Source of the DNA: Escherichia phage RCS47
Direction: 5' to 3' (one strand)
Sequence record: NC_042128.1
DNA length: 64,000 nt
The notes beneath the pieces are model-generated. The model made no database searches, was not told the origin of the DNA, and saw only the letters and a program-made list of their open reading frames with translations. The first letter of the stretch is position 1; each line of letters starts with the position of its first letter. Shown in pieces: positions 1,485 to 56,139 of the stretch. The position numbers were made by a program, and so were the translations under genes.

Positions 1485-1501
1485 ATTGCTCTAATTATTT
1501 G
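1485..1501. promoter_or_regulatory. C1 repressor operator-like site
   Basis: ATTGCTCTAATTATTTG vs P1 operator consensus ATTGCTCTAATAAATTT. Confidence 0.5.
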
Positions 1502-1517
1502 ATATTTATGGTGACAC

Positions 1518-1829
1518 ATGCGGAAGGATTTCAAAATAGACGGAAAATATGTGGTGCTGTCTGTAAGCTCTCAAATTCAGTCACCATCTGTCATTGTCAC
1601 CGTAAAGTTGAGCGATAGGATGCCTGATATCGACTCGATATCTGTTGCGTTCCCCGTTAAAAGTATGCGGAGTGCTGAACATTTTGTGATGAATGCAACG
1701 GAGGAGGAAGCGCGGCGCGGGCTTACTAGAGTGATGGCGGAATTTGGCGAACTCCTGGGTAAGGTAAACAATGCCCTTTCAATCAGTTCAGCAAGATCCA
1801 AAGCGTTAACAGCTTCCATGATGAAATAA
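1518..1829 (+). CDS. hypothetical protein at the c8 position of P1
   Basis: 103-aa ORF between cre and ref; assignment by synteny only. Confidence 0.35.
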   Translation: MRKDFKIDGKYVVLSVSSQIQSPSVIVTVKLSDRMPDIDSISVAFPVKSMRSAEHFVMNATEEEARRGLTRVMAEFGELLGKVNNALSISSARSKALTASMMK

Positions 1830-1960
1830 AAAAAGCCTGGCAAGGAGCCAGGCTGCACAAAAGAGCGGGTTTGTATTCCGCATCCAATCAATCAAGAAGG
1901 AGTATAGCACACAGGTACTGAAGTGAAAAAATGTGATTCGCGATTAACAAAATATCTACC

Positions 1961-1990
1961 ATTGCTCTAATTGATTGCTATAATTAAGCC
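1961..1990. promoter_or_regulatory. tandem overlapping C1 operator-like sites upstream of ref
   Basis: ATTGCTCTAATTGATTG followed by ATTGCTATAATTAAGCC; ref is C1-controlled in P1. Confidence 0.5.
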
Positions 1991-2044
1991 GCAGTTTTTG
2001 TCAACTACGAAGACGTTGCCATTACTTAACTCCTTGACATCATT

Positions 2045-2070
2045 GGCGGCCATTAGGCCGCCTTTTTTTT
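2045..2070 (+). terminator. GC hairpin plus T8 tract immediately upstream of ref ATG (terminator/attenuator-like)
   Basis: GGCGGCC-ATTA-GGCCGCC followed by TTTTTTTT, ends 5 nt before ref start. Confidence 0.5.
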
Positions 2071-2075
2071 GCCAT

Positions 2076-2636
2076 ATGAAAACAATCGAACAAAAACTTG
2101 AACAGCGCCGCGAGTGGCAGAAGGCAGCCAGAGAACGAGCGATCGCTCGGCAACGGGAAAAGTTGGCTGACCCCGCCTGGCGAGAATCGCAATATCAGAA
2201 AATGCGGGATTCTATCGACCGCCGTATCGCTAAACAGAAAGAGCGCCCACCAGCCAGCAAAACGCGGAAAAGTGCGGTAAAGATAAAATCTCGTGGCTTG
2301 AAGGGGCGAACATCGACAGCGGAGGAACGGAGCATCGCCAATGCTCTTGGCGCTCTCCCCTGCATTGCCTGCTACATGCATGGAGTAATATCTGAAGAGG
2401 TATCTCTGCACCATATCTCCGGTCGTACCGCGCCGGGTTGTCACAAAAAGCAATTGCCCCTTTGTAGATGGCACCACCAGCATGCAGCACCGGCTGAAGT
2501 AAGAGAAAAATACCCCTGGCTGGTCCCTGTTCATGCCGATGGTGTGGTTGGAGGCAAGAAAGAATTCACCTTGCTGAACAAGTCAGAGATGGAGTTGCTG
2601 GCTGACGCCTATGAGATGGCAAACATCATGCACTAA
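2076..2636 (+). CDS. ref: Ref recombination enhancement function (HNH endonuclease)
   Basis: 186-aa product from internal ATG of the 221-aa ORF; MKTIEQKLEQRREWQKAARERAIARQ... and Cys/His-rich HNH region. Confidence 0.85.
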   Translation: MKTIEQKLEQRREWQKAARERAIARQREKLADPAWRESQYQKMRDSIDRRIAKQKERPPASKTRKSAVKIKSRGLKGRTSTAEERSIANALGALPCIACYMHGVISEEVSLHHISGRTAPGCHKKQLPLCRWHHQHAAPAEVREKYPWLVPVHADGVVGGKKEFTLLNKSEMELLADAYEMANIMH

Positions 2637-2825
2637 TAAATATATTATTTTTAATCTGAAATAATTGACAACTGACAAGTGACTTCAGTCAGAATCATCA
2701 CATGCCCGGTACGGATGGATCCCTTTTCAAATATTCCATGGACGGCACAGTCTGAGTACCGGGCGCTACCTTCAGTTGTATTGCTAAGCCGCCGCTGGTG
2801 GCTTTTCTTTTTTGTAGGGGGCGCT

Positions 2826-3467
2826 ATGGATAAGAAAATATGCGTTGTTTCAATGAGCGTCGGCAAACCGGCGTCAATGACTGCTGCATGGATCAACAAT
2901 GAGCTGATAATGGCTGAGCGGACCAGCTACCCTGAACGCCGCCGCGATATGGAACTCCAGCTGCTGCGCGAATTGCGAGAAAAAGAGGAAAAGGGTTTTA
3001 TCGTGCTGGTGGAAGAGGAAAACAGCTTTATTACTGGTCGAGTTGGCCAGCGTGTAAGGTTGCGCGATCCCTTCATGAACGGCAGGCCGGTACTGATTGA
3101 AGCAATGCAGATTTACAAGGAGCTGGAACGCCAGAAAGCGATCAAGTTACCGCGCAAGGAATCCGGCAAATACATCCTCCACCAAAGCATCTTCGATTCC
3201 GAACACGATAAAAAAGGCGATGAATTTTTCAACATCAACTGGAGTGAAATAACGACAGAGCATGTTCTGACGTTACTATGTTGCTTTGCGACGGAATACA
3301 ACAACGTTGCCAGCGCCGACTACATCAGGGCAATGGCTGGAGAAGTTGAGGCCCGCCAGGAACCATCGTTACTAAGCCCTCTGATTAACATAATTCGCGG
3401 AACCCAAACACTGGCGCAAAAACAAGTACCACGAGGGGAATTGACGGGTAAAGGTAATTATCTCTGA
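2826..3467 (+). CDS. Mat-like protein (by synteny after ref)
   Basis: ATG at 2826 preceded by GGGGG; 213 aa; position matches P1 mat. Confidence 0.5.
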   Translation: MDKKICVVSMSVGKPASMTAAWINNELIMAERTSYPERRRDMELQLLRELREKEEKGFIVLVEEENSFITGRVGQRVRLRDPFMNGRPVLIEAMQIYKELERQKAIKLPRKESGKYILHQSIFDSEHDKKGDEFFNINWSEITTEHVLTLLCCFATEYNNVASADYIRAMAGEVEARQEPSLLSPLINIIRGTQTLAQKQVPRGELTGKGNYL

Positions 3468-3506
3468 AAGATGCCCGGCGACAGACCGGGCAAAAGGGCG
3501 GAAAGT

Positions 3507-3755
3507 TTAATCAGCATTCAGGAGCAATGCGTTATCTATGATGATCTGCTCCCATTCTTCGAATGCCCGATCGCGGACGCCCTGGGGAACACTGTTAGTT
3601 TTGAAATCGACGACCGTACGCCATTTCCCGTCCGGACGGTACATGCGCAGAGCTTTACTTCCCCCTTCCCTGCGCACCTCAACGTTATGCTTGTCAGCAA
3701 ACTCTTGTAATGCTCGTAGCGTCCCATGCTTTACTGTGTAGTATCGCTTTTTCAA
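3507..3755 (-). CDS. lxc: Lxc/Bof C1 co-repressor
   Basis: 82-aa product MKKRYYTVKHG...; TTG start overlapping upstream stop; last gene of darB-ulx-lxc operon. Confidence 0.6.
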   Translation of the reverse strand: MKKRYYTVKHGTLRALQEFADKHNVEVRREGGSKALRMYRPDGKWRTVVDFKTNSVPQGVRDRAFEEWEQIIIDNALLLNAD

Positions 3756-4192: not shown

Positions 4193-4225
4193 ATTATGCG
4201 ACGCCCGGCGAACCGGGCGCTCCTG

Positions 4226-10200: not shown

Positions 10201-10993
10201 TACTGGTCCCGTTTGCGTCAAAAGTACCGGTAGGCAAGCGGTGGGCACCAAGAAATTCAGCTTTACGGGATAGGCGCAGGCGTAACCGCTTCATGTTTGA
10301 ACCTGAAACAATGGACGGCGGCACAATCACGCACATGAATCCGCCTGGCTTTATCTTGTCCAGCATGCGGAGCATGAAGTAAGAACCCATGTCCATTTCT
10401 TCTGCGTAAGGCTTATCGATGTTGCGTGTGTTATCACGACCGCCGAACGGAACGTTACCCACAACATGGTCGAATGAATCATTAGGTGTGCTTATAGCCA
10501 GCTGTTCGAACGGGGAAATCTGTACGCTGTCTTCCGGGTGTAACAGCTGGTTTATACGACCGGAAACACTGCTGATCTCAGTCGCGGTAATCACCGTACC
10601 AACCGGTTTTGTCTCATTAAAAACGCCGGTGCCCGCCGATGGTTCCAGAGTGTTACCTACGTCCGCGCCGTAGAGCTTCATGATCTCCCAGACACCTTCA
10701 GCGATCGGCTTTGGTGTGTAATATTCGGAGACGGACCCGCCAATGCCGCCTTCACCGGTGTACCCAGCCAGGATCTGGCGCTGTTCATCTGTCAGTGTCG
10801 CGCCGTCCACCAGCGAATTAAGCAAATCTATCGCCTTCTGATTCGCCTCCCGGCGCAGTCGGTCATAGCTTTTGCCTTCCACCTTTTCCACGCCGTATCT
10901 AATCGGCGCTCGGTGAGATGTTATTGCCCTAATGTATTTCAATATTTCGCTGACACTTGAACAGCGAAACACCCCCATAGATAGCTTTTTCAT
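4226..10993 (-). CDS. darB: DarB antirestriction protein (methyltransferase plus helicase domains)
   Basis: single 2255-aa ORF; contains helicase-like motifs (GTGLGKTTTA, DEGHNYRN); size equals P1 DarB. Confidence 0.85.
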   Translation of the reverse strand: MKKLSMGVFRCSSVSEILKYIRAITSHRAPIRYGVEKVEGKSYDRLRREANQKAIDLLNSLVDGATLTDEQRQILAGYTGEGGIGGSVSEYYTPKPIAEGVWEIMKLYGADVGNTLEPSAGTGVFNETKPVGTVITATEISSVSGRINQLLHPEDSVQISPFEQLAISTPNDSFDHVVGNVPFGGRDNTRNIDKPYAEEMDMGSYFMLRMLDKIKPGGFMCVIVPPSIVSGSNMKRLRLRLSRKAEFLGAHRLPTGTFDANGTSTVVDVVLMRKHPAEMAEKIPLVDESTLESANMLWPTFISGKWFEKDGRRFVHGTQEKGFRGRIEVRANGQIDNQALKAKLIHRFESRIDWSLLDMAEPSPTADVVGEGEMRLINGVWQKYAGGRWIEADAGKELKIDAASYGADSWEALQRNLTTTEGRLGMTFTQMANVRDKYTTSISDDMVQLVDWINSQPEKYRERLYRGAMIGRMLIEYQDMKAAGHSAEQIEQQRLSLVSRLQAEIDRFGNPGRGPIAKLSGSGARAWFAFRGAIKLDGTISDELTGKLVTHDSSASYDSTSYQDTLRYLYSDLTRDPIQLDDFRLAFTGELPASDDELLNLLASTPGIAVSPYGGIVPFARATSGDINEIVAPKQEFLATLPDGPVKNNVLNQLAAIEEKRIKTPAENIRFKLNSRWFDRSVILEFLQENGYPDLRYVQSVQLEGDEMVSDTYHGGDGLFVGQRYGVVQRKDKETGEIRYEWDRKSGENATGFPAQLEKYLNGARIGGKDSATANGYREQMALLEDQFNKWIKTHDRYDELVAKYNDVFNSNIPYEHSGDPLGLKGLSGKRQPFDYQNSEVRRLSEDGRGILGFGTGLGKTTTALALEAFNYENGRSTRTAYVVPKSVLENWYYEAKEFLSEEAFSNYLFVGLDVLMDGDQIRQVPVLDENGKPVLGTDGTPVMRDALKLADEATITARMNAIPHSNYRAVVFTKEQYARIPLRDDTVDEHAQDMLYDFVAAGRVASAMDSDSHRKEAARRRVLSEYSDTGTEKAEKYPYFEDMGFDSVIADEGHNYRNSYKNGREASQLAYLPTSAVAQSARDMAIKNAYLMKKNGGRGPVLLTATPVVNTPIDAYNMLSHVLPKEYWQKMGIYGPDDFVKFFGKTRLETVQKISGEVEEKMALVGFENLDALRGIFHRWTTLKTAEDVKDTVEIPALDEHQQDAPLTEEQLAAYEELRQQAEATAKANNGVTTSVNEDGVIEHEKARPIFSIIRDMDRVCTDMDLYYRRITYRFLPEYADAVQQLADSLPKQATSEDDDSDDSITQQSQYSLIDKGEFIQLQVPEAFEQEVNKRLARFGIDEQTVTHPVTPKYAKLIATLKEFFPEGKQIIFTDEKTQHQKLKRIICNALNLEPSKVGILNAQTVAEAGKTGKKLKAVKPPKELPDEPTDAQIAKYNEQMALYDAYIAQQNEMSLGGLEKIAADFQEGRTPIIICNKKAEVGINLHRGTTDIHHLTLPWTPASIAQRNGRGARVGSNRASVRVHYYCGKGSFDEYRLKTLKRKAGWISDILRSDKSEMENADANDMIEMQMYTAKDDGERLAMMQVQMDKAKAAQRARQKEQATIDLQSYIKAQHAAGEDAEVLTAELERSKAELEKTTAEVAKFKQAVMAKAADNADWKARWGSVHHTDRTLLAQYRASLKSAIQRKANISQAISRYEKLLNRTQKAATDIKRLRPLVEDAINKGILDVDPDLVNHANEFLVIGDRSWRVGQYYDCAGDIVRIKSLDFDSPRADVEIIFTFKGTKSGNWDVKTLDKQVDVTPDEDAVMQKISGGVSIAGINDIISCDDFYRFQQRGMIKITDSYGVQTTESGYSIDFVGTYTDPLKHAVYPDRRDGALKSSIAKWVLGMMSEGNNRQIRSAETFLVELFGSNYGDVIASYGDTLSPEAIQEKIADAIARMPEKTSQGSTRNGDSELEVTNAIFGTNEFRASDYEITTAQFGTIGIYSNKDEIKQAMDAASARIAAERKANLNHAVAALTQSWVTAIREAATTGKITPAIADVVNDGSKFMDAYQMDAVKLPSAYGQLSYRMTYNLVSMFSDLAILGLVDLNEVTPELLSMRKNHVEILQRVNTVLAGRTDEEKQADADRINLALGNITEEEIAARNEKQEELSSIQGDATSIAQSLGLNYRVSTADLKMMYAPKFAAGEVFGLQEASGMKGVLFRAKDAIKAKFGARWLPAKAKNSDFPGNWWIIETKHNVADVLAVIQQYA

Positions 10994-11059
10994 TGGTAAT
11001 CCTTAACAAGTGACTAGTGTTAAATTCCGTTGAAACACGATGCGAATTATTCTAATTAA

Positions 11060-13790
<2,731 letters not shown>

Positions 13791-13795
13791 CCATC

Positions 13796-13828: not shown

Positions 13829-13834
13829 TAACTA

Positions 13835-14772: not shown

Positions 14773-14789
14773 ATTGCTCTAATTAATTT
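14773..14789. promoter_or_regulatory. C1 operator-like site upstream of ssb
   Basis: ATTGCTCTAATTAATTT, 20 bp upstream of ssb start. Confidence 0.55.
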
Positions 14790-14808: not shown

Positions 14809-15297
14809 GTGGCACAACGCGGTGTAAACAAAGTCATCCTGATTGGTACCCTGGGGCAAGACCCGGAGATCAGGTATATACCAAATGGCGGCGCAGTCGG
14901 AAGACTCAGCATCGCAACGAATGAATCATGGCGCGATAAGCAAACGGGCCAACAGAAAGAGCAAACAGAATGGCATAAAGTCGTTTTGTTCGGAAAACTT
15001 GCTGAAATTGCGAGTGAGTATTTACGAAAAGGTTCTCAGGTCTACATCGAAGGGAAACTTAAAACCCGTAAGTGGACTGATGACGCCGGTGTAGAACGTT
15101 ACACGACGGAAATTATCGTCAGCCAGGGCGGCACCATGCAAATGATCGGCACTCGCCGCGACGATTCACAGTCCTCAAATGGCTGGGGGCAGTCAAACCA
15201 ACCTCAAAACCACCAGCAATACAGCGGTGGCGGCAAACCTCAGAGCAGCGCCAATAACGAACCTCCAATGGACTTTGACGACGATATTCCGTTTTGA
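14809..15297 (+). CDS. ssb: single-stranded DNA-binding protein
   Basis: 162 aa, GTG start; OB-fold region plus Gly/Gln-rich tail ending DFDDDIPF. Confidence 0.9.
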
Positions 15298-15494: not shown

Positions 15495-15946
15495 ATGAAT
15501 AACATGACAACGAAAGAGCTTTTGACGGCACTTCCAAAATACAAAAGCCATAAAACAGTTCGCGCCTCAAAAATCAAAGATATCGAAATTATCGCCCTAA
15601 TGGATGTGGTCCTTTTTTGCAACATCGAAGTCGTTGAGCCAGAAGGGGTAAAAGTCCATGTTGATAAAATATTTTTGCAAAAACACCGACCAGAAATTGG
15701 CGGATATCTGGTCGCTTATGAGGACGGATCTCTGTCCTATTCACCAGAAAAAACATTTGAAGAAGGCTTTAGTCGGACTAACGACTTCTTCGAAAATGGG
15801 GTATCGCTCAGCATTGAAGGTCACAATGGGGTGACATTCATTACAGCCAGGGACGTAACTATTTCTGCTGGCGGTATCGCTACTCTACAAGAAGAAATCG
15901 ACCTTGAAGCAGCCGACTTTTCTGACGCGCTGATGTGGCTGAAGGA
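15495..15946 (+). pseudogene. 5' part of a phage gene interrupted by the IS26 unit
   Basis: ORF from ATG 15495 runs in frame into the IS26 left end; its continuation is found after the second IS26 at 25584. Confidence 0.65.
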
Positions 15947-16766
15947 GGCACTGTTGCAAATAGTCGGTGGTGATAAACTTATCATCCCCTTTTGCTGATG
16001 GAGCTGCACATGAACCCATTCAAAGGCCGGCATTTTCAGCGTGACATCATTCTGTGGGCCGTACGCTGGTACTGCAAATACGGCATCAGTTACCGTGAGC
16101 TGCAGGAGATGCTGGCTGAACGCGGAGTGAATGTCGATCACTCCACGATTTACCGCTGGGTTCAGCGTTATGCGCCTGAAATGGAAAAACGGCTGCGCTG
16201 GTACTGGCGTAACCCTTCCGATCTTTGCCCGTGGCACATGGATGAAACCTACGTGAAGGTCAATGGCCGCTGGGCGTATCTGTACCGGGCCGTCGACAGC
16301 CGGGGCCGCACTGTCGATTTTTATCTCTCCTCCCGTCGTAACAGCAAAGCTGCATACCGGTTTCTGGGTAAAATCCTCAACAACGTGAAGAAGTGGCAGA
16401 TCCCGCGATTCATCAACACGGATAAAGCGCCCGCCTATGGTCGCGCGCTTGCTCTGCTCAAACGCGAAGGCCGGTGCCCGTCTGACGTTGAACACCGACA
16501 GATTAAGTACCGGAACAACGTGATTGAATGCGATCATGGCAAACTGAAACGGATAATCGGCGCCACGCTGGGATTTAAATCCATGAAGACGGCTTACGCC
16601 ACCATCAAAGGTATTGAGGTGATGCGTGCACTACGCAAAGGCCAGGCCTCAGCATTTTATTATGGTGATCCCCTGGGCGAAATGCGCCTGGTAAGCAGAG
16701 TTTTTGAAATGTAAGGCCTTTGAATAAGACAAAAGGCTGCCTCATCGCTAACTTTGCAACAGTGCC
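15947..16766 (+). mobile_element. IS26 copy 1
   Basis: 820 bp, ends GGCACTGTTGCAAA ... TTTGCAACAGTGCC. Confidence 0.92.
16010..16714 (+). CDS. tnpA: IS26 transposase
   Basis: 234 aa [35 protein letters not shown]... Confidence 0.95.
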
Positions 16767-17421
16767 TTTCGCCCTCATCCGGTTCATGACGGTCGGGCAG
16801 GGAGGCAATCTGAATATGGCGATACTGGCCGGCATATTCGGTAATAAGATGGCTTAAATTGCCGTCCACCTTCTGCGCGTGAAACAGATCTAACTGCACC
16901 GCCAGGTTCGGCCTGTCGACCCGTTTCACCATCGCCAGCGTCTGATATTGACTGTGGTAGAGATAGCCCGGTTTGGTCTGCGGATTCAGCGCTTCGATGA
17001 GTATCCGCTTGTCGTGGCGGGCAAAGCACTCCGCCGCGTAGCGCAGATTATCGATAAGCACGGCCTCGCAGGCTGCGCGATCCGCTCCCGGCGGCACCAC
17101 GCCGGCCATGATATGCACCTGCGGGCAACCGAGCTGGCAGGCATACTCCAGCGCCAGCTCAATATCGCGTCGGGCCTCCGCGCTTCTCCCGGGGATGGCG
17201 GCGAGCCCCCATTCTCCGGCGTTGACGTCGCCGGGTGGGGTATTGAACAGCACCAGCTGCAGCTGGTTCTCCTGCAGGCGCTGTCTGATTTCCCCGGCGG
17301 CATACTCATAGGGAAACAGAAACTCAACGGCTTCAAATCCCGCCCGGGCAGCGGCGGCAAAGCGTTCCAGGAACGGCAGTTCGGTAAACAGCATGGATAA
17401 ATTTGCAGCGAATTTTGGCAT
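16767..17421 (-). pseudogene. ygbM: ygbM-like hydroxypyruvate isomerase family gene, 3' end truncated by IS26
   Basis: N-terminal ~218 aa intact, reading frame continues into IS26. Confidence 0.65.
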
Positions 17422-17425
17422 GGTT

Positions 17426-18046
17426 TTATCTCAGTTCTTTTACTTCGTCAGCGGTCAGGTAGCGGATCTCGCGGTTGCCGAGGGTAAATATCAGCCGTGC
17501 GGTCTCTTCCAGTTCCTCGGTATTGTTGGTGGCTTCGCGCAGCGATGAGCCAGTAACCACCGGTCCGTGGTTGGCCAGTAAAAAGGCGTTATAGCGGGGC
17601 GCCAGCCCGGCCAGCGCCTGGGCAATACGGTCATCGCCCGGCCGGTAGTAGGGAACCACCGGGACGTCGCCGACGCGCATCACCACATAGGGGGTAAAGG
17701 GGCGGATACAGTTGTGCGGATCGAGCCCCTGCAGGCAGGAGAGCGCGGTCAGATAGTGGCTGTGCAAGTGGACGATCGCCTTGCAGGCCGGGTTGTGCAA
17801 ATAGACTGCCCGGTGAAAAGTGACCTCTTTCGACGGTTTGTCGCCGGAGATCCATTCTCCTTGCAGCGTCACCACCGACAACCGCTGAGCCTGCAGTTCG
17901 CCGAGGCAGGCGCCGGTCGGCGTCGCCAGCAGGTTGCCGTCCGGCAGCAGCAGCGACAGATTGCCAGCGGAGCCGGTGGCATAGCCGCGGCTAAATAACG
18001 AGGCGCCAATCTGCACCATTTCCTCTCGCAGTTGTTGCTCAGTCAT
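17426..18046 (-). CDS. ygbL: class II aldolase/adducin family protein (YgbL-like)
   Basis: 206 aa from ATG 18046; part of ygbJKLM-type operon. Confidence 0.65.
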
Positions 18047-19304
18047 GACGAAACTCCTGCTGGGCACGGGCAAAGAACTGGATATCGCCGAAGTTACCTG
18101 ACTTCAGCGCCAGGGAGAGCGGCTGGCGGGTGTCACGCACCCAGGGCACGCCAGGGGAGATGGTCGGCCCAATATGGAACGCCTCAACCCCCAGGGTCTG
18201 CGCCACAATGCTCGACGTTTCCCCTCCGGCCACAATAAAGCGGGTAAATCCTTTCGCCTTCAGGGCGGCGGCAAGAGCGGCAAACAGCTGTTCCACCCGT
18301 TCGCTGCTGGCCTTGTCGCCATACTGCGCCTGGATCCGCTGCAGCGTTTGCGGCTCGGTGGTGGCATAGATCATCGGCGCCAGCGGCGCATCGCGCTGCG
18401 CGTCCACCCAGTCAGTCAGCGTCCTGACGTAGCTCTCCAGATCGGTAAAGCAGGCGCTTAAGTCGACGGCGCGGGCGGGGGCCTGTTGACGATAGGCCGC
18501 CACCTGGCTGTTGGTCATCACCGAGCAGGAGCCCGAGAGCACCACCGCCGGGCCGACCAGCGGCATGCCGGCCTGAGCGCTTTCACCCCGGGCGCCATGG
18601 CGCTGCGCCAAGTCGCGGGCGAGGCCGATGGCGAGGCCGGAACCGCCGGAGACCAGCTTCATCTCCCGCAGCGCCACGCCCTGGGTGAGCAGATCCTGTT
18701 CGCTGAGGGCGTCGAGCACCACATAGCGCACCGCCGGATCGTTGACTGCCGCCAGCGCGGCGGCGACCGCCTCCGGCCCCCGGGCGACAATCGGCCAGGC
18801 AATCAGCGCGGCTTTTCCGCGCCCCTGGCGCTCAATTAAGCGGCCCAGGTGCGCATCCTCCATCGGCGTCACCGGATGGTGGCGCATCCCGGACTCATTC
18901 AGCAGTTGCTCGCCGACGAACAGATATCCCTGATAGACCGTGCGGCCGTTAACCGGCAGCGCCGGGGAAATCACCGTCCGCGTCTCACCCAGCTCGGCCA
19001 GCAGGGCATCCAGCACCGGGCCAATGTTGCCCTGCGCGGTGCTGTCGAAAGTGGAACAGTACTTGAAATAAAACTGCTGACAGCCCTGGGCCTGCAGCCA
19101 GCGCAGGGCCGCCAGCGACTGGCTGACGGCCATTTCCGCCGGGCAGGAGCGAGTTTTCAGGCTGATGACCACCGCCTCGCTGGTCAGCGGAAGATCGCGG
19201 GTCGGCACGCCATTCAGTTGCACCGTCGGCATGCCGTTGCGCACGAGGAAGCTGGCAATATCCGTGGCGCCGGTGAAGTCATCGGCAATGACACCAAGCT
19301 GCAT
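18039..19304 (-). CDS. ygbK: four-carbon acid sugar kinase family protein (YgbK-like)
   Basis: ~421 aa; operon context. Confidence 0.6.
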   Translation of the reverse strand: MQLGVIADDFTGATDIASFLVRNGMPTVQLNGVPTRDLPLTSEAVVISLKTRSCPAEMAVSQSLAALRWLQAQGCQQFYFKYCSTFDSTAQGNIGPVLDALLAELGETRTVISPALPVNGRTVYQGYLFVGEQLLNESGMRHHPVTPMEDAHLGRLIERQGRGKAALIAWPIVARGPEAVAAALAAVNDPAVRYVVLDALSEQDLLTQGVALREMKLVSGGSGLAIGLARDLAQRHGARGESAQAGMPLVGPAVVLSGSCSVMTNSQVAAYRQQAPARAVDLSACFTDLESYVRTLTDWVDAQRDAPLAPMIYATTEPQTLQRIQAQYGDKASSERVEQLFAALAAALKAKGFTRFIVAGGETSSIVAQTLGVEAFHIGPTISPGVPWVRDTRQPLSLALKSGNFGDIQFFARAQQEFRHD

Positions 19305-19315
19305 GTTGTCTCTCC

Positions 19316-20218
19316 TCACTGTTTATGGCCCGGCAGGGTGATGCCGTTGAAAATCTTGATCACCGCGCTGTCATCTTCCCGACCGAATCCGGCATTACTG
19401 GCGGAGGTGAACATATTCAGCGCGGTGGTAGCGAGCGGCAGCGGGAAGGTCAGCGCCCGGGCAGTGTCATTCACCAGCCCGAGATCTTTGACAAAAATAT
19501 CGACAGCGGATTTTGGCGAGTAATCGCCATCCAGGACGTGCTGCATGCGATTCTCAAACATCCATGAATTACCCGCCGCGTGGGTGACCACGTCATACAT
19601 CGTTTCGAGTGGGATCCCGGCGCGGGCGGCAAGCGCCATCGCTTCGGCGGCAACGGCGATGTGCACCCCGGCCAGCAGCTGATGGATAATTTTTACCGTC
19701 GAGCCAAGACCAATGTCGCTCCCTATGCGGTAGACTTTGCCGGCCACGGCGTCCAGCACCGGCGCGAGGCGGGCAAAGGCGGCATCGCTCCCGGAGGCCA
19801 TCACCGTCATGTCGCCGGCGGCCGCTTTCACGGCGCCGCCCGATACCGGCGCGTCGAGCATCAATAGCTGGTACTCCGCCAGCGCCTCGGCAATGGCCTG
19901 AGCATCGGCGGAAGCGATGGTGGACGACACCATCACGACGGTGCCCGGCTTCAGATGGGCGGCGAGGCCGCTCTCGCCGAACAGGATCCCCCGCACCTGG
20001 GCGGCATTGACCACCAGCAGCACAACTGCATCCAGTTCCGCGGCGAACGGCACCGCGCTGGGGCCCGCGCCATTGGCGCCCGCCGCCAGCAGTGCGCGAC
20101 AGTTGTCGGGATTGATGTCAACGCCCCAGGTGTTCAGGCCCGCCTGCAGGCAGGCGCGGGCGGCGCCCATGCCCATTGAACCCAGTCCAATCACGCAGAC
20201 GTTAGTGTGTGCAGCCAT
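19316..20218 (-). CDS. ygbJ: NAD-dependent 3-hydroxyisobutyrate dehydrogenase family protein (YgbJ-like)
   Basis: 300 aa; N-terminal GLGSMG Rossmann motif. Confidence 0.7.
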   Translation of the reverse strand: MAAHTNVCVIGLGSMGMGAARACLQAGLNTWGVDINPDNCRALLAAGANGAGPSAVPFAAELDAVVLLVVNAAQVRGILFGESGLAAHLKPGTVVMVSSTIASADAQAIAEALAEYQLLMLDAPVSGGAVKAAAGDMTVMASGSDAAFARLAPVLDAVAGKVYRIGSDIGLGSTVKIIHQLLAGVHIAVAAEAMALAARAGIPLETMYDVVTHAAGNSWMFENRMQHVLDGDYSPKSAVDIFVKDLGLVNDTARALTFPLPLATTALNMFTSASNAGFGREDDSAVIKIFNGITLPGHKQ

Positions 20219-20478
20219 GCTGGTCTCCTTGTGAACATTAGTTAATTAATGTGATTTAATGATAGAATAAAGCGTTATCATGTGAATTTATGTGAGAGTT
20301 ATCACGAATAACCCACATGAATATAAAAAATTCACAGGCGGAAAGAGGCTGCACAACGGCGATTCTTGCCCTAAAATAGCGTAAAAACAGCGGCAAAGCG
20401 CGATAACAACACCGGGTGTCGCCAGGGCCGTAGCCTGGGTGGTGACGCCTGGTGTGAAAAAATGGTAAGGGGAGAGCG

Positions 20479-21240
20479 GTGATTCCAATAGAACGACATC
20501 AGCGTATTTTAGCCCTGGTGGAGCAGCGTGGGGCGGTAAGCATTAACGAGCTGACGGAGATCCTCGGCGTGTCCCATATGACCATCCGTCGGGACGTCAG
20601 TAAACTGGAGGAGCAGGGGCTGCTGGTCAGCGTCTCGGGCGGCGTGCGCGCCGTCAGCCGGCTGGCTGCGGAACCCAGTCATCTGGTGAAAAGCACGCTG
20701 CAGAGTGAGGAGAAACAGGCGATCGGCGCGCTGGCGGCGAGTCATATCGCTAAAAACAGTTGCATCTATCTGGATGCCGGGACTACCACCCTGGCGCTGG
20801 CGCGGGCGATCCTCGACCGGAACGATCTCCAGGTGGTCACCAATGATTTTGAGATAACCCAGCTGCTGATCGATGCCAGCCAGTGCGGCGTGATCCACAC
20901 CGGCGGCACTCTGTGCCGGGAGAACCGCTCCTGCGTGGGCGAATCGGCGGCGCGTACGTTACGCCACCTGGCTATCGATACGGCCTTTATCTCCGCCAGC
21001 GGCTGGGACAGTCGCGGGATATTCACCCCTGATGAGAACAAGGTTACCGTCAAGGAGACCGTCAGCCAGGTCAGCGCGAGAAGCATCCTGCTGTGCGACA
21101 GTTCGAAATACAATCAGGTGGCCACGTTTATGGCGTTACCTTTGACCCGGTTCACCACCATCATTACCGACCGGCATCTTTCCGATGCCGCCGCCAGTCA
21201 TATCGCCCGGCACGCCTGCGAGGTGCTGCGGGCCGGATAA
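20479..21240 (+). CDS. ygbI: DeoR family transcriptional regulator (YgbI-like)
   Basis: 253 aa; N-terminal HTH then sugar-binding domain; divergent from ygbJ. Confidence 0.7.
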   Translation: MIPIERHQRILALVEQRGAVSINELTEILGVSHMTIRRDVSKLEEQGLLVSVSGGVRAVSRLAAEPSHLVKSTLQSEEKQAIGALAASHIAKNSCIYLDAGTTTLALARAILDRNDLQVVTNDFEITQLLIDASQCGVIHTGGTLCRENRSCVGESAARTLRHLAIDTAFISASGWDSRGIFTPDENKVTVKETVSQVSARSILLCDSSKYNQVATFMALPLTRFTTIITDRHLSDAAASHIARHACEVLRAG

Positions 21241-21260
21241 CGCGCGCGGCCACCGCCGGG

Positions 21261-22121
21261 TTAGCGTTGCCAGTGCTCGATCAGCGCCGCGCCGATCCCG
21301 GCGATTTGCTGATTTCGCTCGGCCATGCTCGCCGGGGTATCCCGCAGATAAATCACCACAATGCGCTCTGCTTTGTTATTCGGGCCAAGCAGGGCGACAA
21401 TCCCGCGCGCACCCCGCTCGCTAGCTCCGGTCTTATCGGCGATAAACCAGCCCGCCGGCAGCACGGAGCGGATCAACGGTCCGGCGACCCGATCGTCCAC
21501 CATCCACTGCAGCAGCTGCCGTTGCGAACGGGCGCTCAGACGCTGGCTGGTCAGCAGCTTGCGCAGGGTCGCGGCCATGCTGGCCGGGGTAGTGGTGTCG
21601 CGGGCGTCGCCGGGAAGCGCCTCATTCAGTTCCGTTTCCCAGCGGTCAAGGCGGGTGACGTTGTCGCCGATCTGGCGCAAAAAGGCAGTCAATCCTGCGG
21701 GGCCGCCGACGGTGGCCAGTAGCAGATTGGCGGCGCTGTTATCGCTCATGGTAATGGCGGCGGCGCAGAGTTCGCCGACCGTCATGCCGTCGGCAAGGTG
21801 TTTTTCGCTGACCGGCGAGTAGTCCACCAGATCCTGCTGGCGATAGTGGATCTTTCGCTCCAGCTGTTCGTCACCGGCATCCACCCGCGCCAGCACTGCG
21901 CCGCAGAGCACTACTTTAAAGGTGCTCATCATGGGAAAGCGTTCATCGGCGCGCCAGGCGGTCAGCGTGCGGCCGCTGGCCAGATCCATTTCTATCATGC
22001 CTACGCGGCCCGACAGCTGGCTTTCGCTTAGTTTAATTTGCTCAAGCGGCTGCGGGCTGGCGTGTACCGCCAGCGGCAGGGTGGCTAACAGGGAGATAAT
22101 ACACAGGCGAATATAACGCAT
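21261..22121 (-). CDS. blaSHV: SHV class A beta-lactamase, Ser238 variant (SHV-2-like, extended-spectrum)
   Basis: 286 aa [21 protein letters not shown]...; [11 protein letters not shown] with AGC (Ser) codon at Ambler 238, Glu240, Leu35. Confidence 0.93.
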
Positions 22122-22397
22122 AACCACAATACATCCTTGAGTGAGGGCCGATAAAGGCGAGTAAAGAAGCGACAAATAAGAATAACCCGGCGTTTTGCTG
22201 ATTCACAATTCCTCTTTTTTCCTTCATCATTTTTCATCTTTTATTTCGAATAATCAATATCTAGCCCTGCCTAAGCACGCTATTTTTTGACTCAAGGCCG
22301 TGATGAACTATAAGAAAGTACTAAATACCGCACTCTGTCGGGCGTCGCTGTTTGCCGATCACCACGCCCGCCGGTCCCTGCGGTTCGCCAACGCTAT

Positions 22398-22679
22398 ATG
22401 CCATCCCGGGAGGAACTGGTGCACCCGATAATTAAGGTCATGCTGGTGGGCGGTAAGGCGGACGGGCTGTTGGTCAGCGTCGCCGATGACGCGACCGAAG
22501 TCTCGGTGACGCCTGCGCAGTACGGTGCGCTATCCGGGCAATCGTTGAGCTACCGAATTGTTAGCCAAACCATTGACGATGAACGCTATTTTTTTGGCGT
22601 TTTCAGCGACGCCCATCAGGATAGCGATAAGCTGACGCGGGTCGCCCTGACCCGTGGAATGAAAAAAATGTTCTGTTAA
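22398..22679 (+). CDS. hypothetical small protein upstream of recF-like ATPase
   Basis: 93-aa ORF, no recognisable motif. Confidence 0.3.
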   Translation: MPSREELVHPIIKVMLVGGKADGLLVSVADDATEVSVTPAQYGALSGQSLSYRIVSQTIDDERYFFGVFSDAHQDSDKLTRVALTRGMKKMFC

Positions 22680-22765
22680 ACCCTGCCCGAAAGGGGGCGT
22701 AAGAGGGTATGCCGGGCGCCGCTGTGCTACTGTGGCAGCCTTCTATTTCCAGGGCCGGACGCATA

Positions 22766-23854: not shown

Positions 23855-23884
23855 AGCCCGTCATCCCTGACGGGGGCGCTGGAG

Positions 23885-24763
23885 TCAGGCGGGGCTCTGC
23901 GTCTCTGCGGTCGGCAGCAGACGGTTGCCGCCGCGTAGGGTGACGAACGAGAGCAGGGTGAAGCTCAGGGTTATGCAGCCGAGGATCAGATAGGCCTGAT
24001 GGAAGCCGACGGTGTCGTACATCCGGCCCACCCAGGCGGAAAGCACCACCCCGGACAGCTGTTTTGACAGATTAAAACCGATCAGGAACAGGGTGGCCGA
24101 GAGGCGCGGGTTAAAGGCGGAAGAGATATATTTAAAAGTTCCCACCAGCAGGAAGGGGATCTCAAACATATGCAGCATCTTGAGGATCACCACCTCGACT
24201 GCCGATGAGGCGAAGGACGACCCGAGAATACGCACCGACATGATCATCCCCGCGGTCAGCAGGGCGTTTTTGGCGCCGATGCGGTTAACGATGGCCGGCG
24301 CGCAGAACATGATCAGCGCGTTGAGCAACTCGCCGCCGGTGGTGACGAAGCCAAACACTTCGGTACCGCGCTGCGGACTGGCGAAAAAGCTTTTGAAAAA
24401 GTTGGCGAACTGCTGGTCAAACACGTCGTAGACGCTGGCGACACCCACCACATAGACGATAAAGCCCCAGAAGCGCGGCATACGCAGCAGCTCTGCCGCC
24501 GTACGCAGCGAAAAGGCCTGGCGATTGGCGCCCAGCGCCTCGATAACCTGGGCGCTGTTGCTGCTTTCCGGCCGCGACAGCCAGAGCAGCAGACCGAGCA
24601 CCAGCGCAAAGCCGGAGGCGATCCAGAAGGTGATATTGGGATCGATGCCGAACAGCACGCCGGTTATCGAGGCGCATAGCGCCCAGCCGACGCAGCCTGC
24701 GACCCGCACTTTGCCATATTCAAAGCGGTTGGCCCGGCTGACGCGTTCGATATAAGCTTCCAC
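23885..24763 (-). pseudogene. lacY: lacY lactose permease, 5' end truncated by IS26
   Basis: C-terminal ~290 aa of an MFS permease colinear with LacY (...FEYGKVRVAGCVGWALCAS...); frame continues into IS26. Confidence 0.8.
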
Positions 24764-25816: not shown

Positions 25817-25822
25817 TTTAAC

Positions 25823-51336: not shown

Positions 51337-51876
51337 CTACCACCAACTGCTAGCTTTCTTCTCTCTAGCTTTTCCTTCGCTTTGCAGTAAATCTTTACTT
51401 CCTGTAGAAATATTTCTATTTGCATCAGCCTCAGACTGAATTACATCTGTCTTAGCTGCTCTCTCCTTCAACTCCTGCTCTATAAAATCGTTTTCTCGCT
51501 GGACACGAGCCGCTTTTGCTTGCAGTTCGAGTTTCATGCTTTCGAGTTGCAGCTTGCGAAGCTCATCCTCATAAGCTTGATCTCGCTTCTTGTCATTTGC
51601 TAGCTCGGCTTCTCGTTTTGCTCTACGTTCATTTTCTGCAGCAACACGCTGTTTTTCGCGTGCAGCAGCGGCAGATGCTGCTTTTTCTCTTCTAATACGT
51701 TCAGCTTGTGCTTGTTGGCGAATAAGTTCTTTTCTGGCATCCTCAGCTTGCTGCTCTTTAGCTCGCCCTTCATTTTCCGCTTGAGCAATAGCAGCAATTT
51801 GACTTTGCAACGAGTTAGCCAAGGCAGTGCCTACACTAAACGTAGAAAAGATTAGAAATAAAATAATTTTATTCAT
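51337..51876 (-). CDS. secreted coiled-coil protein
   Basis: 179 aa; signal peptide MNKIILFLIFSTFSVGTALA; Ala/Glu/Arg/Lys-rich; AT-rich codons. Confidence 0.5.
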   Translation of the reverse strand: MNKIILFLIFSTFSVGTALANSLQSQIAAIAQAENEGRAKEQQAEDARKELIRQQAQAERIRREKAASAAAAREKQRVAAENERRAKREAELANDKKRDQAYEDELRKLQLESMKLELQAKAARVQRENDFIEQELKERAAKTDVIQSEADANRNISTGSKDLLQSEGKAREKKASSWW

Positions 51877-51879
51877 AAA

Positions 51880-52392
51880 TTATTTCTTTTCTGGACAAGT
51901 AGCATTTGGCTGAATTCGAGTTTCATTATCTTTAGTTGAAATAAGCACAGCAAGCCCCGTTGTAAACTGGCATGCTTTACCAACTTGAGTTGAAGTGAAC
52001 ACCTTAGTTCCTTCTTTATAAGTCAGTGAAACACCTTCAACAATTGTTTTATCACTAACCAAAGAACCAGCCGCTGCACCAAGAGCCGCACCACCAGTAC
52101 CGCCAGCTACAGCACCCAGTGTCGATGTGCCTTTAACATTATAACCGGCAACGCCCCCAGCAACAGCTCCCAGTACCGCACCAAATGTCTGTGCCGCTTC
52201 TTTATTAGCTTTATTATCAACTTTCACTTTAGCTGGAAGCACAGAGATAATATTGACTGTCTTTGTTTCCTGCTTCGAATTCAATTGAGCGGTATCATAA
52301 ACATCGGCAGCATAATCAGCACCGCTAGATTGACACCCAGAAAGAAGAATTGCAGATACAACAAGAGCGCATAAAGTATACTTTTTAGACAT
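51880..52392 (-). CDS. glycine-zipper lipoprotein
   Basis: lipobox LLSGC after signal peptide; GAVLGAVAGGVAGY...GAVAGGTGGAALGAAAG glycine zipper. Confidence 0.55.
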   Translation of the reverse strand: MSKKYTLCALVVSAILLSGCQSSGADYAADVYDTAQLNSKQETKTVNIISVLPAKVKVDNKANKEAAQTFGAVLGAVAGGVAGYNVKGTSTLGAVAGGTGGAALGAAAGSLVSDKTIVEGVSLTYKEGTKVFTSTQVGKACQFTTGLAVLISTKDNETRIQPNATCPEKK

Positions 52393-52683
52393 AAGAATCA
52401 TCCAAGAAAAACAAAAACCGGCGAGAAGTTACCACGAGAACGGAAAGTAAACAAGAATACTCCCATTGACTTATATCAATTAATCAACTTTTTATAAGCA
52501 ACCCCTAACTTATTGTGTATAGCTGAAAAGTCAGAGACAAGTTCACCATCTGCATTATTTCTTAAGTTAATAGTTTATTGCTAACTTAATTTATGTATCG
52601 ACTATTGATATCCATCTTAAAGTAACAATATCCCTCTGCATTATTTTTCATCACAAATAATACTTCTATTGCACGACACTCAT

Positions 52684-52699
52684 CTGCTCTAATAAATTT
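52684..52699. promoter_or_regulatory. C1 operator-like site upstream of immI
   Basis: CTGCTCTAATAAATTT. Confidence 0.55.
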
Positions 52700-53013
52700 G
52701 TATTTTTAAGTCGTGAATGCTATCTTTTCGCATCATATTGACCTTTTAATCGTTCAGGCTTATAGTTTCGCCGTCGTAGCAAATTCTGCGACCGGGTTTA
52801 GCAGCCTGAATGATTGTGCGGACAGCCGCAGATATCCGATATTGCGGTATTTTTGTGTCCGTAAAACCGCGTTACGCCCAAATTATGGTGGGGCGTGATG
52901 GGGAGGCTTCGGCCTGCTGGTTTCACAATCGCCAGTCTGCTAACCCCGTCACGTCCTGCCACCTGTTTAGCAGCGGGTAGCAGGTTGTTAAACCTGATTG
53001 TGAGGCCGTAACT

Positions 53014-53235
53014 ATGGTTAATGCCAATCCTTGCGCACGCCAAGAATTCATCTGGCGTTTCTATTCCTGTAAAAAACACCACTATCACTTCGTTATCGCA
53101 GCAACAGAAGACGAAGCACGCTCTCAATTGCCTGATGGCCCCTGCATTTTTACTGCCCGTTTTTCAACTAACTCGCGCAATTCACTTAGTTACTGGAGCC
53201 TCCCCTTCTCTGCCGACGTTCAGGGGGGTTTATGA
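53014..53235 (+). CDS. icd: Icd-like cell division inhibitor
   Basis: 73 aa, ATG after TGAGG, overlaps ant start by 4 nt as in P1. Confidence 0.55.
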   Translation: MVNANPCARQEFIWRFYSCKKHHYHFVIAATEDEARSQLPDGPCIFTARFSTNSRNSLSYWSLPFSADVQGGL

Positions 53236-54266
53236 AAACACCTCTCGTCACCCGTAATGAAATAGCCGAAGCGATCGCCTTGCATACAATCTGTATGCCG
53301 ACACGGGAGATCCCCGGCGCAATTGCCAACTATTTCATGATAACCAGGCGTTTTTATACCCGAACAGATAAGGCTGTGATCAACAGGCTACTGATAGCCG
53401 AGATCAGGGATTATTTGATTGAACAAGGACGTCTACGTTACGCAACAGTGGCAGCAGAAATGAGAAAGGAGGCACATAGAATGACCGGTAATAATTTAAA
53501 TGTTGAAAAACCAGCACCTGTTGCTTCAGCTACGCCAGCACCAGCCCTGAATGTCATCCCCAACACCGGAGACACAATCGACAGCCAAACATTGTTGAAG
53601 ATGGTCAATGAGGCACGGAAATTATGTAGCGAAAAACCAGTTCGCAACAATGATTTCATTGCCAGAGTTAAGGATGAGCTTGAAGGAGAAACCTACGAAA
53701 TTTTCGTAGGTCAAAAAAACGGCGCAGAAATAGATATTATAACCATGACCTACAAACAAGCCCTGCGAGTTGCCGCGCGCGAGTCAAAAGCGGTCCGCCG
53801 TTCGCTGATCGACAAACTGGAAGAATTACAGCAGGCAAACTCCCCTACCCCATCGATCCCCCAGACATTACCAGAAGCCCTACGCCTGGCTGCCGAGTTA
53901 GCAGAACAGAAAATGCAGTTGGAACAACAGCTGGTGGCCGCAGCCCCTAAAGTCGATTTTGCCGACCGGGTATCAGTGGCCAATGGAATCCTGATCGGGA
54001 ACTTTGCAAAGGTCGTTGGACTTAAGCAAAACGCCCTTTTCTCATGGTTGCGCCAGAATGGCATTCTCATGGCTTTTGGAGCGCGCAAAAACGTACCGCG
54101 CCAACAGTACATCAACGCCGGGTATTTCACGTTGAAAGAAGTGGTGCTGGATGATGAAAATGGCTACCAGATACGGCTGACGCCCCAATTAACGGGTAAA
54201 GGCCAGCAGTGGTTAACTCGCAAGCTACTTGATGCTGGTTTGTTAAAACCAGTAGCAATAGGTTAA
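53232..54266 (+). CDS. ant: Ant antirepressor
   Basis: 344 aa; C-terminal antirepressor domain shared with KilA (...GNFAKVVGLKQNALFSWLRQNGIL...). Confidence 0.75.
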   Translation: MKTPLVTRNEIAEAIALHTICMPTREIPGAIANYFMITRRFYTRTDKAVINRLLIAEIRDYLIEQGRLRYATVAAEMRKEAHRMTGNNLNVEKPAPVASATPAPALNVIPNTGDTIDSQTLLKMVNEARKLCSEKPVRNNDFIARVKDELEGETYEIFVGQKNGAEIDIITMTYKQALRVAARESKAVRRSLIDKLEELQQANSPTPSIPQTLPEALRLAAELAEQKMQLEQQLVAAAPKVDFADRVSVANGILIGNFAKVVGLKQNALFSWLRQNGILMAFGARKNVPRQQYINAGYFTLKEVVLDDENGYQIRLTPQLTGKGQQWLTRKLLDAGLLKPVAIG

Positions 54267-54276
54267 CAAAAGAAAA

Positions 54277-54303
54277 AACCTGCCAGCAAACTGGCAGGTT
54301 TCT
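54277..54303 (+). terminator. rho-independent terminator after ant
   Basis: AACCTGCCAG-CAAA-CTGGCAGGTT followed by TCT. Confidence 0.6.
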
Positions 54304-54343
54304 GAGCAGATCGACCAACCCGATCTGGATCGAGTCAGAAAAA

Positions 54344-54360
54344 TTTGCTCTAATAAATTT
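54344..54360. promoter_or_regulatory. C1 operator-like site upstream of kilA-repL
   Basis: TTTGCTCTAATAAATTT. Confidence 0.6.
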
Positions 54361-54429
54361 CGTTTTCTAAGTGCAAAGAATCACCATTTCGAGCTGGTGA
54401 TTGAAGGTTGATGCAAATTTGGAGAAAAA

Positions 54430-55230
54430 ATGCAACAAACATTCAATGCGGATATGAATATATCAAACCTTCATCAAAATGTCGATCCTTCAACCACTCT
54501 GCCCGTTATTTGTGGTGTTGAAATTACGACCGACCGCGCTGGCCGTTACAACCTTAATGCTCTACACAGAGCGAGCGGACTCGGTGCCCATAAAGCGCCA
54601 GCTCAATGGCTAAGAACGCTGTCAGCTAAACAGCTCATCGAAGAGCTTGAAAAAGAAACTATGCAGAATTGCATAGTTTCGTTCGAAGGCCGTGGCGGCG
54701 GCACTTTTGCCCATGAATTGCTCGCAGTGGAGTACGCTGGTTGGATTTCTCCCGCGTTTCGGCTGAAGGTAAACCAGACATTTATCGACTATCGAGCCGG
54801 AAGATTACAACCTGCTATTCCGCAGAGTCTCCCTGAAGCTCTCCGTTTGGCTGCCGACCTGGCAGAGCAAAAGCAACGGCTGGAACAAAAAATGCTTATG
54901 GATGCACCTAAAGTCGAATTCGCCGAACGCGTTGCTACCGCCAGCGGGGTTCTAATCGGCAACTATGCCAAAGTGCTCGGTCTGGGCCAAAACTATCTCT
55001 TCACCTGGTTGCGTGATAACGGAATTCTGATCGCAACCGGTGAACGCAGGAACGTCCCCAAACAAGAATACATATCCCGTGGGTATTTCACCCTTAAAGA
55101 AACCGTGATCGATACAAGCAATGGAAGCAGGATTTCTTTCACGACTCGTATAACCGGCAAAGGTCAGCAGTGGCTGATGAAGCGATTGCTTGATACTGGT
55201 GTGCTGGTACCTGTCGCGGCAACGCGCTAA
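54430..55230 (+). CDS. kilA: KilA
   Basis: 266 aa; N-terminal KilA-N-like region plus C-terminal domain paralogous to Ant. Confidence 0.7.
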   Translation: MQQTFNADMNISNLHQNVDPSTTLPVICGVEITTDRAGRYNLNALHRASGLGAHKAPAQWLRTLSAKQLIEELEKETMQNCIVSFEGRGGGTFAHELLAVEYAGWISPAFRLKVNQTFIDYRAGRLQPAIPQSLPEALRLAADLAEQKQRLEQKMLMDAPKVEFAERVATASGVLIGNYAKVLGLGQNYLFTWLRDNGILIATGERRNVPKQEYISRGYFTLKETVIDTSNGSRISFTTRITGKGQQWLMKRLLDTGVLVPVAATR

Positions 55231-55259
55231 CAGACGTAGTAAGAACCACCAGCATTGTA

Positions 55260-56105
55260 ATGCTGGCTAAAGTCACTTTCCTGAGCTGTATAACGATGAG
55301 CGATTTTACTTTTTCTGGCTATGAATTGGCCTGCTTTGTAACACACTCCGGTCTATCCCGTAGCGCCGGGCATATCCTGTCGCAATGTGCAAATCTCGCG
55401 GCAACAACCAGTGAATACTTCATTCACAAGCCTCACCGCCTGATCGCGGCAGAAACTGGTTATAGCCAATCAACCGTCGTTCGTGCATTCCGTGAAGCTG
55501 TAAACAAAGGAATCCTGTCTGTAGAGATTGTTATCGGCGATCACCGTGAACGTCGCGCTAACCTGTACCGGTTTACACCATCCTTTTTGGCCTTCGCACA
55601 ACAAGCCAAAAATGCGCTGATTGAAAGCAAATTAAAGATCTCTTCAGCGGCAACCAAGGTTAAAGCTGTTCTCGCTAAGACATTGGCTTTATTTAATTTT
55701 TTATCCACATCCCCATGTCAAAATGATACCCCCTCCCCCTGTCAGGATGACGTGGCAATAAAGAATAAGAAGTCACAAGTTAAAAAAACAAAAAGATCAG
55801 TTTCCGACGGTGCCGGAACGTCCAGACTCAAAAAATTGACTTCGTGGATCGCTGAGGCAAAAGCAAAAGCTGACAATCTGCGGTTATCCAAAAAACGCGC
55901 TCAAAAACATGAGTTCAAGCAGAAAGTAGAGGCGGCAGCGCGGAAATATGCTTACCTGAAGAACAAGCGTTCTCCTGATATTGGCGGGATATCAAACTTC
56001 GATAATCTGCCGCATTGCATGACGGTAAACGAAGCTCTTAATGCGGTTTTAGCCAAAAATAAAGATAACGAACAATGGGGTATACCGGCAGGATTCAGAG
56101 GGTGA
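55260..56105 (+). CDS. repL: RepL lytic replication initiator
   Basis: 281 aa directly after kilA. Confidence 0.65.
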   Translation: MLAKVTFLSCITMSDFTFSGYELACFVTHSGLSRSAGHILSQCANLAATTSEYFIHKPHRLIAAETGYSQSTVVRAFREAVNKGILSVEIVIGDHRERRANLYRFTPSFLAFAQQAKNALIESKLKISSAATKVKAVLAKTLALFNFLSTSPCQNDTPSPCQDDVAIKNKKSQVKKTKRSVSDGAGTSRLKKLTSWIAEAKAKADNLRLSKKRAQKHEFKQKVEAAARKYAYLKNKRSPDIGGISNFDNLPHCMTVNEALNAVLAKNKDNEQWGIPAGFRG

Positions 56106-56139
56106 TAGATTGCTCTAATCTGGAGTCACCTGGCGTTTT

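Follow-up and report, generated by a model that had tools for sequence, protein, structure and literature searches.

The DNA analysed here (the window) comprises 64,000 nucleotides of Escherichia phage RCS47 (NC_042128.1), in which short operator-like motifs of the kind bound by the P1 repressor C1 lie before c8, ref, mat, ssb, the c4-icd-ant1 genes and kilA-repL, all of these coding genes being intact downstream of the sites. The window represents the first 64 kb, counted from lox, of a P1-like phage-plasmid: a blastn map against the assembled P1 sequence (AF234172) places its position 1 on position 1 of P1, and shows it to be colinear with P1 from lox onward with several modules replaced. 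Megablast at both ends of the span that carries the motifs returned 97-98% identity to P1, P7, JL22, 673R5, SJ46 and other Punavirus records, and the source of the window, on this sequence similarity, is a P1-like phage-plasmid of the genus Punavirus. The coordinates of the sites and of the neighbouring mobile element are collected in Table 1.

Table 1. Operator-like sites and the TnpB element in the window, with log-odds scores, adjacent genes and counterparts in P1 or P7
Feature	Coordinates	Strand	Sequence	Score (bits)	Location and counterpart
Candidate Oc8	1485-1501	+	ATTGCTCTAATTATTTG	23.0	between cre stop (1467) and c8 start (1518)
Oref (former Op2a) orthologue	1961-1977	+		21.7	before ref (2076-2636); identical to P1 1962-1978
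Weak second copy beside Oref	1974-1990	+	ATTGCTATAATTAAGCC	12.9	10.0 bits in P1; about 0.8-1.6 expected by chance
Omat (former Op2b) orthologue	2627-2643	+	CATGCACTAATAAATAT	21.4	ref 3' end, upstream of mat (2715-3467); identical to P1 2628-2644
Moderate match in darB	10923-10939	+	ATTGCCCTAATGTATTT	16.7	about 0.1-0.37 expected by chance; identical in P1 (17166-17182)
Ossb (former Op21) orthologue	14773-14789	+		27.1	before ssb (14809-15297); identical to P1 21015-21031
Oc4 (former Op51) orthologue, P7 type	52683-52699	+	TCTGCTCTAATAAATTT	21.5	before c4 RNA (52881-52966), icd (53014-53235) and ant1 (53232-54266)
OrepL (former Op53) orthologue	54344-54360	+		25.1	before kilA (54430-55230) and repL (55260-56105); identical to P1 49810-49826
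Orlf/Op55-derived site	56109-56125	+	ATTGCTCTAATCTGGAG	3.1	exact 11-bp core (56109-56119) with non-consensus tail CTGGAG
TnpB-only IS200/IS605-type element	56143-57472	+			tnpB 56257-57432
Weak word	58419-58435	-	AATGTTCTAATAAACTA	12.5	chance level

The roles of C1, Lxc and Coi in P1 immunity have been described, Lxc being reported to strengthen the binding of C1, and the consensus of the C1 operator is ATTGCTCTAATAAATTT (PMC8546580). The 20 monovalent binding sites annotated for the "phage repressor C1" in P1 AF234172, two pairs of which constitute bivalent operators according to the same annotation, were taken as the reference set, and a 17-bp log-odds matrix was trained on them. The background was described by 300 dinucleotide shuffles and by the exact score distribution for independent and identically distributed (i.i.d.) bases, and all expected counts are given per window. 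Among the reference sites, position 7 is C in 19 of 20 and positions 14 and 15 are A or T in every case; the exact 11-bp core ATTGCTCTAAT occurs 11 times in P1, each copy belonging to an annotated operator, the poor-tailed Orlf and Olpa included.

Six sites in the window reach at least 20 bits, ranging from 21.4 to 27.1, against 0.037 expected from the shuffles and 0.013 from the exact i.i.d. distribution, and all of them are located on the plus strand ahead of the expected genes. The consensus with at most three mismatches likewise gives six matches (0.22 expected), and the exact core is present in four copies, all on the plus strand, where about 0.03 would be expected. Five of the strong sites, at 1961, 2627, 14773, 52683 and 54344, correspond base for base to orthologous operators in the P1 or P7 annotation: they display the same consensus as the P1 operators at the same positions relative to the same genes, and the 17-mers of Oref, Omat, Ossb and OrepL are identical to those of P1. 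The motifs are thus very probably asymmetric 17-bp operators of a P1-type C1 repressor, as predicted for this element from orthology and motif content, and the orthologous ones are known parts of the P1 immunity and early-lytic regulon. The original prediction, which had attributed six listed sites to the C1 immunity regulon, is borne out in that attribution by P1/P7 orthology and by scores of at least 20 bits. Five of its sites are real and score 21.5-27.1 bits with the matrix built from the P1 operators (1485, 1961, 14773, 52683 and 54344), while the sixth, behind repL, reaches 3.1 bits and lies at background, and Omat had been missed. All the sequences quoted there exist in the window, two of them with shifted spans, since the site ascribed to immI begins at 52683 instead of 52684 and the one behind repL occupies 56109-56125 instead of 56108-56124.

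Two points weigh against this assignment. Because the matrix was trained on the P1 counterparts of the orthologous sites, their high scores are not independent evidence, and for these sites the real evidence, as read from the sequences, is orthology rather than score. Moreover, c1 is located just left of lox and hence outside the window, and the repressor was examined in a proxy, CP088789.1, the closest available relative with 99.8% identity over the first 5 kb of the window. A single residue distinguishes the C1 protein of this proxy from P1 C1.100 (283 identical positions out of 284, the stop being counted along with the 283 residues), and the same record carries Oc1a, Oc1c, Oc1d and Oc1e together with the c8, ref and mat sites of the window. 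The corepressor gene lxc was mapped by homology within the window, at approximately 3507-3755 on the minus strand.

In such a lysogen, C1 would bind scattered sites lying over or next to sigma-70 promoters and would thereby keep the early and lytic functions off, the promoter overlap of the five orthologous sites being taken over from the P1 promoter annotation. The Lxc corepressor helps C1, and Coi and Ant1/2 oppose it. The operons under C1 control here would be ref, mat, ssb, c4-icd-ant and kilA-repL.

Several of the orthologous sites deserve individual comment. The site before ref had been described as a tandem spanning 1961-1990; its first copy is indeed Oref, and the second coincides with the P2ref promoter, the TATAAT within 1974-1990 being the P2ref -10 element as annotated in P1 (1980-1985), and this stretch is more likely to belong to the promoter than to be an operator of its own. 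The P1 record assigns Omat to the minus strand, wrongly, as the operator reads on the plus strand. The Oc4 17-mer equals the Op(c4) annotated in P7 and differs from the Oc4 of P1 in its first two bases (TC, not AA) and in the whole upstream flank; Rfam detects the C4 antisense RNA and the c4-a1b1 targets just downstream of 52683. Beside it, the sim (superimmunity) region of P1 is replaced by unrelated DNA at 51309-52684, and the flank adjoining Oc4 is of the P7 type, not the P1 type. Within OrepL, the TCTAAT is the annotated -10 element of the mapped PkilA/P53 promoter of P1.

The sixth strong site, the candidate Oc8, is the only one without an operator feature in the annotation of P1 or P7, and 0.0016 sites with its score are expected per window. 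The gene behind it, c8, is a little-studied gene for establishing lysogeny. At this position P1 and P7 read ATTGCTATAAT, with a core mismatch at position 7 (C7A) that creates a perfect extended -10 element TGnTATAAT (TGCTATAAT). A survey of 96 IMG/VR contigs, retrieved with an anchor inside cre and therefore unbiased with respect to the site, found the core ATTGCTCTAAT in 86, ATTGCTATAAT in six (three matching P1 and three matching P7 over the c8-site stretch) and other single changes in four, so that C at position 7 is kept in 90 of the 96 natural contigs. Among the distinct sequences, the mean minor-allele frequency amounts to 0.008 over the 11 core columns versus 0.26 over the 17 nucleotides upstream (1468-1484), and conservation begins abruptly at operator position 1, just to the right of this hypervariable stretch. 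The site before c8 is, on these comparisons, a credible additional C1 operator that has escaped annotation.

The core before c8 contains TGCTCTAAT, which is the same as the TGn plus -10 element (TCTAAT) of the annotated PkilA in P1; the site at the repL 3' end shares it, and for both sites use as a -10 element is predicted by analogy. The c8 site may accordingly double as an extended -10 element (TGnTCTAAT), as the core of OrepL does for PkilA. We tentatively suggest, with a likelihood a little short of even, that wild P1-like phage-plasmids possess an unannotated Oc8 lying over an extended -10 element, by which c8 would be C1-repressed, and that P1 and P7 do not, their core being broken by C7A. 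Some observations weigh against this proposal: a generic promoter scan did not call the 1485 site, no good -35 element was found for it, and the core could be conserved as a promoter -10 element only, without serving as an operator. In the literature searched, which did not extend to the original P1 genome paper (Lobocka et al. 2004), there was no mention of a c8 operator. That the motif is nothing more than a -10 element or another conserved signal, not bound by C1, is the less probable explanation, though it retains some weight, as P1 and P7 carry TGCTATAAT, their curators called no operator, and the stretch as far as the c8 start codon is conserved too. Against it, the 23-bit match includes an acceptable tail, and the onset of conservation at operator position 1 lies upstream of any -10 element. 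Furthermore, the C at position 7 found in 90 of 96 contigs weakens a -10 element and is nevertheless present in 19 of 20 operators, which argues for selection on C1 binding and not on promoter strength alone.

Behind repL, whose TGA stop codon occupies 56103-56105 and is followed by a TAG, an operator-like site begins at 56109 and thus does not overlap the stop codon as had been claimed. In P1, Orlf (former Op55; ATTGCTCTAATTATAAC, 51575-51591) is situated 3 nt beyond the stop codon of repL and precedes rlfA-rlfB; the operator annotated at the corresponding place in P7 is Op(rap). The window site shares with these operators its location and the core ATTGCTCTAAT, and its left flank (GGGTGATAG) is of the P7 type; it differs from P1 Orlf in the tail, which reads CTGGAG and not TATAAC, and in that the rlfA-rlfB(-pmgF) genes are missing from the window. 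Their replacement consists of a small membrane open reading frame (ORF), a sok-like region and an ORF of 210 amino acids (aa) on the opposite strand, plus the TnpB element. Homology to P1 and P7 stops exactly behind the core; the blastn alignment with P1 ends at window position 56119 (P1 51585), the last base of the core, and resumes at 58497 near bplB. The low score of the full 17-mer is composed of +19.9 bits for the core and -16.8 bits for the tail, and about 49 such matches are expected; the matrix therefore does not distinguish this 17-mer from background, and it is the core half alone that stands in positional orthology to Orlf/Op(rap).

From its position and its core, the site behind repL is the known Orlf/Op55 in a hybrid, probably weakened form. 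Throughout this lineage, another cassette has taken the place of the rlfA-rlfB-pmgF module, the breakpoint lying immediately behind the 11-bp core, so that the core survives with the foreign tail CTGGAG. Among 64 relatives collected by a repL-end anchor that excluded the operator itself, 57 possess the CTGGAG 17-mer and seven the P1 tail, and the former is therefore the majority allele in nature; when IMG/VR contigs were chosen by the repL end together with the core, 66 of the 80 had the CTGGAG tail and 14 that of P1. No donor of the tail was found, as the CTGGAG variant occurs 80 times in IMG/VR and each time after repL.

It is conceivable, though doubtful, that the hybrid site still functions as a C1 operator, as an extended -10 promoter (TGnTCTAAT) or as both. 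In the relatives it would then control the replacement cassette, namely a small 81-aa membrane ORF and a hok/sok-like region, while in this window it would point into the TnpB element. In favour of a working site, the 11-bp core is exact and remains invariant in 57 of 57 CTGGAG-type contigs, every exact core of P1 belongs to an annotated operator even where the tail is poor, as in Orlf and Olpa, the same core provides the -10 element of PkilA, and Lxc has been reported to strengthen C1 binding (PMC8546580). The opposing evidence includes the 3.1-bit total with its -16.8-bit tail, which has G at positions 14 and 15, a base absent there from all 20 P1 sites. The invariance of the core is also not significant (0 of 11 core versus 7 of 28 flank columns vary, p ~0.08), the eight distinct sequences being too uniform, and the ORF downstream in the window lacks its 5' half, where the TnpB element now stands. 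In addition, the role of the P1 site itself is not clear-cut, the predicted PrlfA being located about 94 nt downstream of Orlf.

The TnpB element following the hybrid site belongs to the IS200/IS605 family: Pfam recognizes HTH_OrfB_IS605, OrfB_IS605 and a Cas12f1-like TNB domain in tnpB, subterminal hairpins of the form CCTCGCCC-loop-GGGCGGGG occur near both ends, and no tnpA was found in the element. A precise empty allele, ...TTTTCAG followed by TATGGATTTTC..., is present in eight IMG/VR contigs and defines the element bounds as 56143-57472 without target duplication; no second DNA-level copy of the element was found in the window, and its ends were defined from these empty-site alleles. In domains, absence of target duplication, empty allele and hairpins, it thus resembles the TnpB-only elements of IS200/IS605, and it does not form part of the operator set. 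Under the model of RNA-guided homing, the guide would be expected to target the right flank TATGGATTTTC..., and the end of the left flank (TTCAG or TCAG) would serve as the target-adjacent motif (TAM). Another TnpB element is found at 31147-32481 (tnpB ~31251-32390), with 29% protein identity to the tnpB discussed here; its insertion point falls precisely between P1 27545 and 27546, where ddrB meets ddrA.

Three alleles meet at one junction (56142/56143). After ...TTTTCAG, 59 IMG/VR contigs continue with a 155-bp stretch, eight directly with TATGGATTTTC, and only three with the left end of the TnpB element. The 155-bp stretch (TTTGAGG...CTTAG; pLH10-b-1-B L006 542-697) supplies the 5' half of the 81-aa ORF, which encodes a two-helix membrane protein and of which the window retains only the 3' part, at approximately 57476-57588. 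The 17-mer and the next 17 bases (ATTGCTCTAATCTGGAGTCACCTGGCGTTTTCAG) are present in TnpB-free relatives, among them the plasmid pLH10-b-1-B, the phage 673R5 and some 70 IMG/VR contigs; because these element-free relatives carry the same 17-mer, the CTGGAG tail is not TnpB DNA. The TnpB element inserted later, inside the replacement cassette, and on this allele comparison it is a neighbour of the hybrid site that did not give rise to its odd tail.

The original prediction had placed the site against the element's left edge and suggested that it might be the orphaned operator of an operon displaced by TnpB. The first of these claims is not sustained, as the element begins at 56143, 17 nt beyond the end of the 17-mer. 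The second survives in part, for P1 Orlf/P7 Op(rap) is indeed the operator of an operon now absent, while the TnpB element is not responsible, TnpB-free relatives having the identical 17-mer. That TnpB inserted into the operator behind repL, displaced its operon and left half of it orphaned at the left edge is accordingly a very improbable account. It can invoke the proximity of the site to the element and the absence, to the right, of P1-type sequence (the rest of Orlf, rlfA, rlfB and pmgF); against it stand the 17-nt distance, the precise empty site in eight contigs, and the 59 IMG/VR contigs, pLH10-b-1-B and 673R5, in which ATTGCTCTAATCTGGAGTCACCTGGCGTTTTCAG is followed by non-TnpB DNA. The CTGGAG tail in 57 of 64 anchored relatives likewise speaks for a majority allele and not for an insertion product, and all 80 occurrences of the variant are found after repL, none at other insertion sites.

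Among the weaker matches, that at 10923-10939, which is unannotated in P1, falls within the initial codons of darB, with the late promoter LPpro and prt about 85 nt downstream, and may represent either a weak operator or a coincidence. The word at 58419-58435 stands 16 nt upstream of the 210-aa ORF (57771-58403, minus strand), which occupies the place of pmgF and showed no Pfam match. Matches of 6-13 bits, including those at 1974 and 58419 and the 17-mer at 56109, are about as frequent as chance predicts, and chance is the default reading for 1974-1990 and 58419-58435. In the DNA specific to the window (15499-25826, 51309-52684 and 56120-58496), the matrix scan found no further operator above 12.5 bits. 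The notion that all the matches are chance copies of an AT-rich word, to which the frequency of these 6-13-bit matches conforms, can practically be dismissed in view of the six sites that reach 20 bits or more where 0.013-0.037 would be expected; every one of them is on the plus strand ahead of the expected genes, and five occupy positions orthologous to annotated operators.

At three places where conserved DNA gives way to replaced or hypervariable DNA, the boundary coincides exactly with the edge of an operator core, namely 1484/1485 on the left of the c8 site, 52684/52685 on the left of Oc4 and 56119/56120 between the core and the tail of the Orlf-derived site. As a weaker corollary, the invariant operator cores would mark the exact edges of module exchange, and operators could act as module junctions; the boundaries may also reflect only selection on the cores.

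Other replaced modules were observed in the window. In the cassette behind the TnpB element, Rfam detects a sok antitoxin RNA at 57602-57775 on the plus strand (68.5 bits), an indication that the replacement of rlfA-rlfB includes a hok/sok-type locus; no clear Hok ORF was identified near this RNA. About 10 kb of cargo absent from P1 lies at 15499-25826, between two repeated insertion sequence (IS) copies near 16.7 kb and 25.5 kb, and contains a class A beta-lactamase gene (21261-22175, minus strand), a DeoR regulator, sugar-acid metabolism genes, a LacY fragment and an AAA_21 ATPase. This cargo has the appearance of a blaSHV module of Klebsiella origin flanked by IS26, in keeping with the P1-like phage RCS47. 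In place of the EcoP1 res-mod region and the IS5 of P1 (3424-9742), the window has about 77 bp at 3423-3499.

These assignments allow Oref, Omat, Ossb, Oc4, OrepL and an Orlf-derived remnant to be annotated in the window, sites which leave the understanding of P1 immunity unchanged. The core-only hybrid, which in most natural relatives stands ahead of a different cassette, amounts to a natural experiment on the share of the 17-bp site that C1 requires. What is modestly new is the conserved site of operator grade before c8, which is missing from the reference phages; P1 and P7 appear to be atypical at this site, and the poorly understood regulation of c8 would become directly testable.

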